A stretch of 64,000 nt of DNA from Escherichia coli (GTDB lineage: Bacteria; Pseudomonadota; Gammaproteobacteria; Enterobacterales; Enterobacteriaceae). Within the stretch, counting starts at the first letter, position 1. The number at the start of each line of letters is the position of its first letter. The stretch is from NCBI RefSeq assembly GCF_050320075.1, contig NZ_CP190018.1; one strand, given 5' to 3'. This document shows, piece by piece, positions 432-62,406 of the stretch. Position numbers and translations under genes: made by a program. The notes under the pieces are model-generated. The model was not told the DNA's origin. It worked only from the letters and a program-made list of their open reading frames with translations, and searched no databases.

Positions 432-514
432 CAACGCCATCAAAACATTGACTTTTATCGCCGTAGCCTTTTCAATAAAGGTCTTTTGAAAAGTACCAAA
501 AGGTAACGCAAGCA

Positions 515-559
515 ATGAATGCTGCTATTTTCCGCTTCTTTTTTTACTTTAGCACCTGA
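515..559 (+). CDS. pheM: pheST attenuator leader peptide (14 aa, [14 protein letters not shown], Phe-rich)
   Basis: ATG at 515, 5 Phe in 14 codons, stop at 557-559, upstream of pheS. Confidence 0.85.
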
Positions 560-605
560 CTCCAGGAGGCTAGCGCGTGAGAAGAGAAACGGAAAACAGC
601 GCCTG

Positions 606-631
606 AAAGCCTCCCAGTGGAGGCTTTTTTT
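606..631 (+). terminator. pheST attenuator terminator hairpin (AAGCCTCC...GGAGGCTT + T7)
   Basis: GC stem followed by TTTTTTT between pheM and pheS. Confidence 0.7.
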
Positions 632-655
632 GTATGCGCGTTTTGAAAAAATTAA

Positions 656-4087: not shown

Positions 4088-4387
4088 ATGGCGCTTACAA
4101 AAGCTGAAATGTCAGAATATCTGTTTGATAAGCTTGGGCTTAGCAAGCGGGATGCCAAAGAACTGGTTGAACTGTTTTTCGAAGAGATCCGTCGCGCTCT
4201 GGAAAACGGCGAACAGGTGAAACTCTCTGGTTTTGGTAACTTCGATCTGCGTGATAAGAATCAACGCCCGGGACGTAACCCGAAAACGGGCGAGGATATT
4301 CCCATTACAGCACGGCGCGTGGTGACCTTCAGACCCGGGCAGAAGTTAAAAAGCCGGGTCGAAAACGCTTCGCCCAAAGACGAGTAA
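4088..4387 (+). CDS. ihfA: integration host factor alpha subunit
   Basis: 99-aa [55 protein letters not shown]... Confidence 0.95.
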
Positions 4388-4400
4388 TCTGATCTAACTA

Positions 4401-4430
4401 AAAAGGCCGCTTTGCGGCCTTTTTTCTTTT
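4401..4430 (+). terminator. ihfA intrinsic terminator (GGCCGC-TTTG-CGGCC + T-run)
   Basis: hairpin and TTTTTTCTTTT 14 bp after ihfA stop. Confidence 0.7.
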
Positions 4431-4487
4431 CACTGTCGAAGAGTCACCGTAAAATCAACGCCATGACACTTCAGCAGAACGGATACC

Positions 4488-10049: not shown

Positions 10050-10068
10050 AACAATGATTCTTATTATC
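10050..10068. promoter_or_regulatory. candidate Fur box upstream of hemP
   Basis: AACAATGATTCTTATTATC matches 14/19 of the Fur consensus GATAATGATAATCATTATC, 23-41 bp upstream of hemP ATG. Confidence 0.45.
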
Positions 10069-10157
10069 AATATTATGGCGGCCAGAGCAAGCAGTAATTT
10101 GTTGAGAAGACAACAAGTTGCGCAGAAATGCCCATTCCGTCAGGAATGGGCACGCAT

Positions 10158-29025: not shown

Positions 29026-29163
29026 CGTGTAATGGCTGCATGAAATAAACAATAAAATATAAATAACATTATCAGCCTGCTGACGGCTTGAAGAGAGTCA
29101 CAGTATCTTGTGCAACATTATTGGAAAGCGTGAGGGGCGAGGTAGCGAAGCGGAAAAATGTTA

Positions 29164-29268
29164 AAAAAAAGCCCATCGTGGGAGATGGGCAAAGACTACA
29201 CACAGCAATTCGTTGTTTCACTCAGGGGATTTCCATGCTTATAAATCAATATGTTGATTTATAACCGT
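29164..29268 (-). ncRNA. rprA: RprA small RNA (RpoS translational activator)
   Basis: minus-strand sequence ACGGTTATAAATCAACATATTGATTTATAAGCATGGAAATCCCCTGAGTG...CCCATCTCCCACGATGGGCTTTTTTT matches my recollection of rprA, including the terminator. Confidence 0.85.
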
Positions 29269-34517: not shown

Positions 34518-34706
34518 ATGTCTACTCAACTTGATCCCACCCAGCTGGCCATTGAATTTTTACGCCGTGACCAAAGCAATCTTTCACCTGCCCAATATCT
34601 CAAACGTCTGAAACAACTAGAACTTGAATTTGCTGACCTGCTTACTCTCTCTTCTGCTGAATTAAAAGAAGAAATCTACTTTGCCTGGCGTCTGGGCGTG
34701 CATTGA
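34518..34706 (+). CDS. ydiH: small uncharacterised protein YdiH
   Basis: 62-aa product from ATG 34518 with GAGGA SD; track ORF extends upstream. Confidence 0.7.
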   Translation: MSTQLDPTQLAIEFLRRDQSNLSPAQYLKRLKQLELEFADLLTLSSAELKEEIYFAWRLGVH

Positions 34707-34904
34707 TCCTGACTTGATGCCGCAATTTCGCCAAATCGACCTTGATTAACCTCCGTCCAGGTTCGATGGCCTTCTTAATACTGCTTATCTACCCGCCTGA
34801 TATTGTTCAAAAATAATACTAATCGCAGTTTGTGTTAAAACGGCGGGTTAGCTTTATGAGATTATTCTTATCGCCCCTTCAAGAGCTAAGCCACTGAGAG
34901 TGCC

Positions 34905-34975
34905 GGAGATAAGCGCCGGATGGGGTAGAAACCCTTAAGCCTGTGTCGCACAGACTTAAGGGTTTTCTTATTTCT
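34905..34975 (+). ncRNA. rydB: candidate RydB small RNA
   Basis: ydiH-sufA intergenic position where rydB is annotated in K-12; hairpin ACCCTTAAGCCTGTG/CACAGACTTAAGGGT followed by TTTTCTTATTT; 5' end and identity not verifiable from memory. Confidence 0.35.
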
Positions 34976-35193
34976 GAACGCTGCACTTTTTTACCTATCT
35001 CTTAAATAGTCATTTTCAATACAACTTTTTCTTTTTCATCACAGCCTTAATGCTCCTTAGATAATAATCATTATCTAACAATGAGATACCTAATTCTTAG
35101 CGTGCCTGTTAACCCACACATCAGGGTCTATGCTTATTAAAAGCAGGAAAAAAGCATGTTTTACGGTAAAGCCCCTGCGTTTGCTGGGTTGAA

Positions 35194-35212
35194 CTGATAA
35201 TCATTATCACTA
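35194..35212. promoter_or_regulatory. Fur box in suf operon promoter
   Basis: TGATAATCATTATCAC, close match to the Fur consensus core, 45-60 bp upstream of sufA ATG. Confidence 0.65.
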
Positions 35213-35254
35213 ACATGCTGTTATACGCTGAAAGCGATGAAGTGAGGTAAATCG

Positions 35255-35623
35255 ATGGACATGCATTCAGGAACCTTTAATCCACAGGATTTCGCCTGGC
35301 AGGGCTTAACGCTGACACCCGCAGCCGCTGTCCACATCCGCGAGCTGGTGGCAAAGCAGCCGGGTATGGTCGGCGTGCGCTTAGGCGTGAAGCAAACGGG
35401 CTGCGCGGGCTTTGGCTATGTGCTCGACAGTGTTAGCGAGCCGGACAAAGACGATCTGCTGTTTGAACACGACGGCGCGAAGCTGTTTGTCCCGCTGCAA
35501 GCGATGCCGTTTATTGATGGCACGGAAGTCGATTTTGTTCGTGAAGGACTTAATCAGATATTCAAATTTCACAACCCTAAAGCCCAGAATGAATGTGGCT
35601 GTGGCGAAAGCTTTGGGGTATAG
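35255..35623 (+). CDS. sufA: Fe-S cluster A-type carrier
   Basis: 122-aa ORF with C-terminal CGCGESF motif. Confidence 0.95.
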
Positions 35624-49296: not shown

Positions 49297-50078
49297 ACCC
49301 GTCGCAACATGCTGAACAGTTTCAGAGCCAGTTGGCGAACTATGTGCCACAGTTCACTCCCCAATTTTGGCCGGTGTGGTTGATCATTGCCGGACTATTG
49401 CTGGTAGGGATGTGGTTTGTGCTGGGGCTGCATGCCTTGCTTCGTGCTCGTGGCGTGAAGAAATCAGCCACCGACCATGGTGAGAAGGTTTATCTTTACA
49501 GCAAAGCGGTCAGATTATGGCACTGGTCGAATGCGTTACTCTTTGTATTGTTGCTGGCAAGTGGGCTGATAAATCACTTTGCGCTGGTGGGCGCAACTGC
49601 GGTTAAAAGTCTGGTTGCGGTGCATGAAGTTTGCGGATTTTTGTTACTGGCATGTTGGCTCGGCTTTGTTCTGATCAATGCCGTTGGGGGTAATGGTCAC
49701 CATTATCGCATTCGTCGTCAGGGGTGGCTGGAGCGAGCGGCAAAACAAACGCGATTCTATTTGTTTGGCATTATGCAGGGGGAAGAACATCCTTTCCCGG
49801 CAACAACACAGTCTAAATTTAATCCCTTACAGCAGGTTGCCTATATTGGTGTCATGTATGGATTGCTGCCGTTGTTACTATTGACGGGGCTGCTGTGTCT
49901 CTATCCGCAAGCCGTGGGAGATGTGTTTCCTGGCGTAAGATACTGGTTATTGCAGGCGCATTTTGCTCTGGCATTTATAAGCCTCTTTTTTATCTTCGGT
50001 CATCTTTATCTTTGCACCACGGGGCGTACGCCACACGAAACCTTTAAAAGCATGGTCGATGGCTATCACCGGCACTAA
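49293..50078 (+). CDS. ydhU: membrane cytochrome b-like subunit (PhsC/NrfD-like)
   Basis: 261-aa polytopic membrane ORF, ATGA overlap with ydhX. Confidence 0.85.
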   Translation: MNPSQHAEQFQSQLANYVPQFTPQFWPVWLIIAGLLLVGMWFVLGLHALLRARGVKKSATDHGEKVYLYSKAVRLWHWSNALLFVLLLASGLINHFALVGATAVKSLVAVHEVCGFLLLACWLGFVLINAVGGNGHHYRIRRQGWLERAAKQTRFYLFGIMQGEEHPFPATTQSKFNPLQQVAYIGVMYGLLPLLLLTGLLCLYPQAVGDVFPGVRYWLLQAHFALAFISLFFIFGHLYLCTTGRTPHETFKSMVDGYHRH

Positions 50079-52635: not shown

Positions 52636-52941
52636 TCAGGCGAGTTTTGCCTGATTGATTTGACTCAGTGGCTCATTGACATCGAAAACTTTGGCGACAA
52701 CTTCCTCAACGCCGAGATTTTTCAGTCGGGCAGTATGTTTTTCCAGATAGGCAAGGGCGCTTTTTTCATCAGTGAAAAGGTAGATCCCACCGGCTTCGTG
52801 GTTCTTTTCACTTTCTGTCCATACCTTCCACAGAAAACCAGGTTCCTGATTAATCGACTCAGCAAGCGGTTCAAGCTGCTCAGCCATTGCGTCGCCAAAT
52901 GGGCCATTAAAAGCAAAATGAAGTTGTAACAAAGTTGCCAT
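52636..52941 (-). CDS. ydhR: putative monooxygenase (dimeric alpha/beta barrel)
   Basis: 101-aa ORF. Confidence 0.85.
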
Positions 52942-53048
52942 AGCGATTCTCCTTCTGATAACGCATACGAAGACAGTGTAAATCTTTTAATGTATTGGAT
53001 ACAGAGAAGAAACAGAGGGAAAAAGGAGAAGACCAGATTAAGAAAATC

Positions 53049-53125
53049 TGGTGCGTCCGAGTGGACTCGAACCACCGACCCCCACCATGTCAAGGTGGTG
53101 CTCTAACCAACTGAGCTACGGACGC
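53049..53125 (-). tRNA. valW: tRNA-Val (anticodon GAC)
   Basis: minus-strand GCGTCCGTAGCTCAGTTGGTTAGAGCACCACCTTGACATGGTGGGGGTCGGTGGTTCGAGTCCACTCGGACGCACCA. Confidence 0.95.
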
Positions 53126-53129
53126 AGGA

Positions 53130-53206
53130 TGGTGCGTTCAATTGGACTCGAACCAACGACCCCCACCATGTCAAGGTGGTGCTCTAACCAACTGAGCTAT
53201 GAACGC
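53130..53206 (-). tRNA. valV: tRNA-Val (anticodon GAC)
   Basis: minus-strand GCGTTCATAGCTCAGTTGGTTAGAGCACCACCTTGACATGGTGGGGGTCGTTGGTTCGAGTCCAATTGAACGCACCA. Confidence 0.95.
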
Positions 53207-61797: not shown

Positions 61798-61840
61798 TCC
61801 ATTTCACTCCAGACCCTAACTTCAGCTCCTGCAAAATCGC

Positions 61841-61858
61841 AAGGTAAACGTTTGCCTT
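61841..61858. promoter_or_regulatory. PurR operator (autoregulation) in purR leader
   Basis: AAGGTAAACGTTTGCCTT, good match to the PurR box ACGCAAACGTTTGCGT; a second box-like site GAAACGTTTGCTCG lies in the first codons (61756-61771). Confidence 0.6.
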
Positions 61859-62066
61859 TACACACCTTACGCACAACAAAAGTGTTGCGGTACGCCGGAA
61901 AAACGACACGGAGCGTCAGGAAGGGGTCAATGGCCAGTACGCAAATAGTGTAAGCGTGGAATTTTGGCCGATCTTGACGAAAAGGGGAAGTGGTAAAAAC
62001 ACTTATCATTATAAATGACGGGAGATTTTTTCATCACAGTGTGTAAAAATGCGTAATATCACTTTT

Positions 62067-62075
62067 TGTGTGGTA
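62067..62075. repeat. IS1 target-site duplication, left copy (TGTGTGGTA)
   Basis: identical 9-mer at 62844-62852. Confidence 0.9.
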
Positions 62076-62130
62076 GGTGATGCTGCCAACTTACTGATTT
62101 AGTGTATGATGGTGTTTTTGAGGTGCTCCA

Positions 62131-62406
62131 GTGGCTTCTGTTTCTATCAGCTGTCCCTCCTGTTCAGCTACTGACGGGGTGGTGCGTAACGGCAAAAGCA
62201 CCGCCGGACATCAGCGCTATCTCTGCTCTCACTGCCGTAAAACATGGCAACTGCAGTTCACTTACACCGCTTCTCAACCCGGTACGCACCAGAAAATCAT
62301 TGATATGGCCATGAATGGCGTTGGATGCCGGGCAACTGCCCGCATTATGGGCGTTGGCCTCAACACGATTTTCCGCCATTTAAAAAACTCAGGCCGCAGT
62401 CGGTAA
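62131..62406 (+). CDS. insA: IS1 InsA (transposition repressor / N-terminal part of transposase)
   Basis: 91-aa [46 protein letters not shown]... Confidence 0.95.

Follow-up and report, generated by a model that had tools for sequence, protein, structure and literature searches.

The well-studied E. coli sufA (sufABCDSE) promoter responds to iron and oxidants and is reportedly controlled by OxyR, IHF, IscR and Fur (Lee et al. 2004, 2008; Outten et al. 2004; Mettert & Kiley 2014). A review assigns ORE-I of this promoter to OxyR and ORE-II to IHF, and reviews describe ORE-III as being bound by IscR and Fur in a mutually exclusive manner and the bending by IHF as bringing OxyR to the polymerase. 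The roles of the three elements are also set out in a primary paper. In the literature, suf is derepressed in the absence of Fur or iron, and RyhB additionally represses the suf mRNA within sufB. The small RNA RydB (K-12 gene b4430; Rfam family RF00118) is still described in recent papers as having no known target. The sole effect reported is that its overproduction lowers rpoS expression. In array and RNA-seq studies, RydB expression was SoxR-dependent, CRP-dependent and ppGpp-repressed. Enrichment of Salmonella RydB by co-immunoprecipitation with Hfq was weak, at 2.5-fold (Sittka et al. 2008). Both the RydB RNA and the sufA promoter are already well known.

Here we analysed the DNA between ydiH and sufA in a 64-kb stretch of an E. 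coli genome; this whole stretch is called the window, and positions refer to it. The spacer is very probably a mosaic of two known, independent units, a stand-alone sRNA gene, rydB, and the sufABCDSE control region. This degree of confidence applies to the whole explanation jointly, including the trimming of a rydB precursor proposed below.

The ydiH-sufA spacer

The spacer is 548 bp long (34707-35254) and extends from the end of ydiH at 34706 to the sufA ATG at 35255. The flanking genes are as follows.

34518-34706, + strand: ydiH coding sequence, 62 aa (open reading frame MSTQLDPTQ...RLGVH, identical to YdiH; annotated in MG1655 and in a genome with a 100% identical spacer)
35255-35623, + strand: sufA coding sequence (open reading frame and annotation), with the Shine-Dalgarno sequence GAGG at 35244-35247

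In the MG1655 annotation, ydiH, rydB (b4430, 1764713-1764780) and sufA follow in this order on one strand, the window being in reverse-complement orientation. Pairwise alignment of the spacer with K-12 gave 99% identity, with seven substitutions and one extra base. Rfam, the MG1655 annotation and this alignment agreed in placing rydB inside the spacer, in the orientation of both ydiH and sufA, as the original prediction had claimed. Of 5426 complete E. coli genomes, 5421 gave a match to the spacer, which was 100% identical in two. The NCBI annotation of a genome with an identical spacer carries neither a rydB feature nor any other RNA here. The locations, strand, conservation and covariation reported below, and the agreement with 3' ends and promoter mutations from the literature, were established directly for this spacer.

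The 150 bp 3' of ydiH have modest predicted structure and are not conserved outside Escherichia. No convincing terminator between ydiH and rydB was found in these 150 bp, the candidate at 34753-34769 being weak. Just 5' of the rydB promoter, an inverted repeat, ACCCGCC ... GGCGGGU (34791-34847; fold z = -2.6), encloses 43 nt; K-12 has a 1-nt deletion in its left arm. The repeat could be a loose ydiH 3' structure.

RydB, its putative promoter and the adjoining hairpin

Three features were located in the rydB part of the spacer.

34857-34865, + strand: putative rydB promoter, an extended -10 element proposed from conservation (TGn at 34857-34859 and GATTAT at 34860-34865; TGAGATTAT)
34873-34933, + strand: mature RydB sRNA, about 61 nt (Rfam RF00118 match and Term-seq 3' end; 5' end placed from the promoter and the start of the Rfam model)
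34928-34966, + strand: predicted intrinsic-terminator hairpin with a U-rich tail to about 34975 (fold and conservation)

The Rfam model RF00118 matched 34873-34933 on the + strand with 81.6 bits (gathering score, 50) along its full length (1-61 of 61), and the K-12 gene b4430 maps to 34861-34928 by annotation and alignment. A permissive Rfam scan of the region gave no other family beyond noise (E-values above 1). Elsewhere in the window, Rfam matches above the gathering score were RprA at 29161-29268 (- strand), the Phe leader at 509-633 (+), STnc550 at 61798-62177 (+) and STnc540 at 4329-4487 (+). Two tRNAs were found on the - strand (53052-53125 and 53133-53206), and the 3' end of a match to the Rfam family 'HPnc0260' (52925-53087, +) is antisense to the first of them.

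A strong + strand hairpin with a U tail (34930-34975) had been predicted and taken for RydB. The hairpin is there, at 34928-34966. It consists of 12 bp, a 1x1 mismatch, 5 bp and a 3-nt loop; its fold of -22 kcal/mol compares with -9.8 +/- 2.5 for shuffled sequences (z = -5.0), and none of 200 shuffles was as stable. The U-rich tail that follows is UUUUCUUAUUUCU and reaches about 34975; the lowest four pairs of the stem are formed between the upstream GAAA and the first four U. A simple terminator scan missed the hairpin because of its internal 1x1 mismatch. Its identification as RydB did not hold. Since the Rfam model and the K-12 annotation both stop where the hairpin starts, the body of the RNA lies directly 5' of the hairpin and is not the hairpin itself. 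RydB had been assigned about 55 nt too far downstream, and the Rfam match shares just the first 6 nt of the hairpin. Thus, alignment to the Rfam model upheld a RydB on the + strand of the spacer and moved it to 34873-34933, upstream of the hairpin.

The 3' end of the RNA has been mapped by Term-seq. In the rydB entries of Adams et al. (2021), the end is at MG1655 1764708, which is position 34933 of the window, with 2.17 million reads in LB at OD 0.4 and 4.14 million at OD 2.0; the same data give 3.5 million for the tRNA aspV and 0.18 million for lpp, and in these counts RydB is comparable to a tRNA. The name rydB appears three times in the file, which has three growth-condition sheets, and two of these entries both give 1764708, with no entry near the U tail beside them. 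The register of the sequence column was checked on the ends of the aspU and aspV genes, where the 3' end is the 51st base. By that register RydB ends at ...GGGGUAGAAACC, which is 34933 and coincides with the end of the Rfam model. In the two growth conditions covered by these entries, 34933 is the sole rydB-labelled end and none is listed at the U tail, so the mature RNA does not have the predicted end at the 34975 terminator. The literature, through these Term-seq entries, supports expression of RydB as a stable RNA of about 60 nt.

In the fold of RydB, helix P1 (34874-34877 paired with 34922-34925) encloses two hairpins, a short one that varies and an invariant one, CCGG-AGAUAAG-CGCCGG. P1 covaries: among 93 distinct sequences 5/5 pairs were changed on both sides and 94% of cells were paired; none of 500 shuffles reached the observed values, and slid controls paired in 27-49%. 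P2 is short in the E. coli type and covaries in the other types. The invariant pairing of P3 is uninformative because it was fixed by the search pattern. The mature 3' end at 34933 lies 8 nt beyond P1 and 6 nt into the 5' arm of the terminator hairpin. Hammerhead-like motifs (CUGAGAG ... GAAAC) present in E. coli RydB showed no conservation in the other copies when these were inspected, and a mini-ORF, AUG-GGG-UAG, after GGAG is not conserved; both were discarded.

Upstream of the RNA, 19 syntenic genomes (Escherichia, Citrobacter, Salmonella, Silvania and Leclercia) have TGAGAnTATTC with little or no variation and show no conservation of the -35 region. Each RydB-like copy of the other genera has a -10-like hexamer whose end lies 7-9 nt 5' of helix P1. 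From this motif and this spacing we infer an extended -10 promoter with a start at about 34872/34873. Against this start, the K-12 annotation begins 12 nt earlier, at 34861, a position within the proposed -10 element. The K-12 annotation (34861-34928), the Rfam match (34873-34933) and the Term-seq 3' end (34933) give rydB boundaries that differ by 5-12 nt, and these sources could be reconciled.

The hairpin was found in the same 19 syntenic genomes, where 96% of cells pair. Four of its pairs were changed on both sides, all in the upper stem, and the lower stem, CCCUUAAG/CUUAAGGG, is constant. A stable stem-loop with a U tract and conserved pairing are what an intrinsic terminator should have, and in vivo 3' ends in the U tract are absent from the Term-seq entries for rydB. 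The missing end would fit rapid removal of the terminator, and termination at the hairpin is proposed from sequence and conservation. Most likely, the hairpin terminates a RydB precursor of about 100 nt, which trimming shortens to about 61 nt. Such trimming is suggested by the length given for the Salmonella gene (105 nt), by the occurrence of an own hairpin in every RydB-like copy and by the conserved -10 element upstream.

We propose the following course of events. Transcription of rydB would start at about 34872/34873 from the extended -10 promoter and stop at the hairpin and U run, with termination at 34967-34975, to yield the precursor of about 100 nt. Subsequent loss of the terminator would leave an abundant and compact RNA of about 61 nt (34873-34933). 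A 3' exonuclease that stalls at a stable helix typically spares 7-9 nt of the tail beyond it. Trimming by a 3' exonuclease that is halted by the folded core would fit the 3' end 8 nt past P1. The hairpin may also shield the sites upstream of sufA from read-through out of the strong rydB promoter and out of ydiH. The start site, the precursor-and-trimming step and this shielding role are the parts of the explanation that we infer.

RydB-like genes in other Enterobacterales

An exact scan of species-representative genomes with the 19-nt core of RydB gave more than 120 loci, 115 of which have a RydB-like upstream motif. The Rfam model scored above its gathering threshold in 16 of the 18 non-syntenic loci tested, and our own model found the core in nearly all loci. 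A match to ydiH or sufA near the core occurred only in Escherichia, Citrobacter, Salmonella, Silvania, Leclercia, Pseudenterobacter and one contig labelled Raoultella. In other genera, for example Pantoea, Rouxiella and Klebsiella, the RydB-like genes are located away from sufA, among unrelated neighbours and with no common downstream gene. At least 12 genomes have two or three copies. Examples among loci L003-L122 are L023/L024 of Rouxiella aceris, L043/L044 of Pantoea agglomerans, L045/L046 of 'Martelella alba' and L005/L078/L079 of a Pantoea MAG. The copies have in common the covarying closing helix, the variable hairpin, two invariant GAGNUAAG motifs and a terminator of their own; in the other genera this is a separate, unrelated hairpin with a U run within 5-40 nt. 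The location of these genes away from sufA, sometimes in several copies, argues against a cis-regulatory role for sufA, and by these sequence comparisons RydB is a gene independent of sufA.

A divergent, unannotated RydB paralogue is present in 304 of 5426 complete E. coli genomes (about 5%). In the one locus examined, that of strain CREC-629 (locus L124, 5013-5075, + strand; NZ_CP024815.1, 2530732-2530794), it lies just 3' of ugd in the gnd-manC-rfbK-ugd ... wbdC-his O-antigen cluster, which by our reading is of the O8/O9 type. This paralogue scores 48 bits with our own model and is followed by a terminator.

Other readings of the locus have to be weighed against a stand-alone gene with a trimmed precursor. 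The hairpin and U tail at 34930-34975 might be RydB itself or a terminator retained at its 3' end, so that the mature RNA would end at about 34975. A strong hairpin followed by a U run would suit this reading, as would the length of Salmonella rydB, which is tabulated as 105 nt and is long enough to contain both (Sittka et al. 2008), and a tool-based survey flags rydB with 'RIT', which we read as Rho-independent terminator. However, in both the Rfam model and the K-12 annotation RydB stops at the foot of the hairpin, and the dominant 3' end in the Term-seq entries is 34933, with millions of reads and none listed at the tail, and we therefore consider this reading improbable. A somewhat smaller chance is given to the idea that RydB is a 3'-UTR-derived RNA cut from the ydiH transcript, the hairpin being the ydiH terminator. 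Both genes are on the same strand, and the interval between them offers only the weak terminator candidate at 34753-34769. But the conserved -10 element accompanies RydB-like cores even where ydiH is missing, the 150 bp 3' of ydiH lack conservation beyond Escherichia, and in many Citrobacter genomes ydiH and rydB are about 2 kb apart; by ORF clustering, what precedes rydB in these loci is a LysR-type ORF and a 283-aa ORF on the opposite strand.

It is also conceivable that the RydB core and the hairpin form a cis-acting sufA leader, that is, a riboswitch-like sensor with a terminator that gates read-through into suf, because a conserved and covarying core, oriented like sufA, stands directly 5' of a terminator. 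This is very improbable and largely refuted. sufA has its own promoter, which starts at 35223, about 250 nt 3' of the hairpin. RydB-like genes have unrelated downstream genes in many genera, most of the loci have no sufA nearby, and each copy has a promoter-like -10 element. In Salmonella, about 1.8 kb separate sufA from rydB, and the downstream neighbour given by Sittka et al. is STM1368. Synteny and the position of the sufA start thus speak against the consistent upstream placement within one transcript that a riboswitch-type leader should have.

The function of a stand-alone RydB can be considered in the light of its structure. Hfq needs a U tail. The weak Hfq enrichment of Salmonella RydB would fit a mature RNA from which the terminator U tail has been removed. 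RNAduplex gave -54.9 kcal/mol for RydB with the rpoS leader, against -43.8 +/- 3.7 for shuffles, 2 of 300 of which were as low; this calculation ignores the strong internal structure of RydB, and the duplex spans nearly the whole RNA. As a tentative and rather doubtful suggestion, RydB may act otherwise than by classical Hfq-dependent base pairing. It may instead be a member of a family of small, rigidly structured RNAs, widespread in Enterobacterales and sometimes present in several copies, that would act by binding a protein or a small ligand. The covarying closing helix with its variable hairpin and the two invariant motifs are consistent with it, as are the own promoter and disposable terminator of each copy and the paralogue in the O-antigen cluster. 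The tRNA-like abundance in the Term-seq entries, and a mature E. coli RNA that lacks a U tail by the same entries, point in the same direction. The structural conservation, the paralogues and the trimmed terminator suggest that a search for binding partners may be more rewarding than prediction of base-pairing targets. If there is novelty here, it belongs to the RydB family and not to the spacer: the breadth of the family and its paralogues, the riboswitch-like structural constraint, the trimmed terminator and the copy in an O8/O9-type O-antigen cluster. How much of this goes beyond the Rfam full alignments is uncertain.

The sufA control region and comparison with known systems

The original prediction regarded the whole 548 bp as a ydiH-sufA regulatory region. 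This is right for about 34984-35254, which alone is sufA regulatory DNA; the RydB part is the independent gene described above. The following features were located.

34984-35030 (approximate limits): OxyR site, ORE-I, with CTAT-N7-ATAG at 34995-35009 and TTCnATACAnCTTTT at 35015-35029
35057-35075, + strand: weaker second Fur-like sequence, TTAGATAATAATCATTATC, 14/19 against the Fur consensus
35067-35096 (approximate limits): IHF site, ORE-II, with TAACAATGAGATA at 35076-35088
35123-35144: conserved block CAGGGTCTATGCTTATTAAAAG, at -100 to -79 relative to sufA +1
35167-35192: IscR type-2 site, ORE-III, placed by published mutants, with conserved AAAGCCCCTG...GGGTTGA
35189-35223, + strand: sufA sigma-70 core promoter, with -35 TTGAAC at 35189-35194, -10 TAACAT at 35211-35216 and start A at 35223
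35196-35214, - strand: Fur box

The core promoter could be fixed by published mutations. In strain descriptions from the Kiley laboratory, the Fur-site mutation of PsufA is -26ATA-24, described as abolishing the intact Fur site, and the IscR-site mutations delete -56 to -51 and change -50C. The sole ATA in the Fur box is 35197-35199; therefore +1 is the A at 35223, 32 nt before the ATG. This start puts -50 at 35173, where the sequence has the C required by the published IscR mutation. The 16-bp spacer between the -35 and -10 elements is filled by the Fur box, which has a perfect 13-bp palindrome, GATAATCATTATC (35196-35208), as its core. Over 19 nt (35196-35214), the box matches the consensus GATAATGATAATCATTATC at 16/19 on the - strand, and 15/19 is reached at 35190-35208. 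It is the only match with at most 3 mismatches in the 64-kb window (0.01 expected) and also the top-scoring site there. A near-consensus Fur box just 5' of sufA had been predicted, and the finding that the published Fur-site mutants fall on 35197-35199 confirms it. The box thus combines a consensus match with overlap of the core promoter, as a Fur-repressed promoter should. The block GGGTTGAAnTGAnAATCnTTATCACTAACATG is nearly invariant in 20 genomes of six genera (Escherichia, Citrobacter, Salmonella, Pseudenterobacter, Silvania and Leclercia). Further matches to the Fur consensus in the window, at 15/19, are located at 10050-10074 and 49689-49707.

Farther upstream, the predicted AT-rich stretch (about 34980-35150) was recovered, with a GC content of 0.26-0.36 across 34950-35149, and it is accounted for by the OxyR and IHF sites. 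CTAT-N7-ATAG and TTCnATACAnCTTTT, the latter conserved across genera, would fit the OxyR site, which is reported to lie at about -236 to -197. The IHF site is reported at -156 to -127. In most of the relatives outside Escherichia that were aligned, the counterpart of TAACAATGAGATA is AATCAATGCATTG, which fits the IHF consensus WATCAANNNNTTR. Ten sites in the window score at least 14 against the Fur consensus, the second Fur-like sequence at 35057-35075 among them. This sequence is probably incidental and not a separate Fur site, because outside Escherichia it lacks conservation as a Fur box, matches at only 14/19, and overlaps by its right half the IHF region starting at 35067. K-12 has a T-to-C change within it, the base in the window making a slightly better Fur-like sequence.

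The block at 35123-35144 is more conserved across the six genera than the OxyR and IHF sites: its core, GTCTATGCTTA, does not vary among the 20 aligned genomes, and its flanks are at least 90% conserved. It presumably lies outside the positions of ORE-I, ORE-II and ORE-III. The block weakly resembles an NsrR half-site; the paper found on NsrR and sufA gave no site information.

Together, these sites suggest that OxyR at ORE-I and IHF at ORE-II would bind the AT-rich DNA, the IHF bend carrying OxyR to RNA polymerase. Apo-IscR would activate sufA from the type-2 site at -56 to -31, and Fe2+-Fur on the palindromic box would block polymerase and compete with IscR. For genome annotation the result is routine: a known sRNA and a known promoter are placed correctly, and the conspicuous hairpin is probably a terminator rather than the RNA itself.

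In comparison with known systems, the locus is that of E. coli K-12 RydB (b4430; RF00118), with the same position, strand and neighbours and with the whole RNA and the hairpin identical; there is no biological difference, and only the coordinates vary by source. RydB of Salmonella (Sittka et al. 2008) has the same core, CCCUUAAG...CUUAAGGG hairpin and U run, but it is annotated with its terminator, as 105 nt, and is located between ydiH and STM1368 instead of next to sufA; in the Salmonella diarizonae locus, the distance from rydB to the start of sufA is about 1.8 kb. Relative to K-12, the sufA spacer has seven single-base differences and one extra base, one of which slightly improves the Fur-like sequence at 35057-35075. 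The published Fur-site and IscR-site mutations of the E. coli sufA (sufABCDSE) promoter map exactly onto the sequence analysed here, and the order ORE-I, ORE-II, ORE-III matches that given in reviews.
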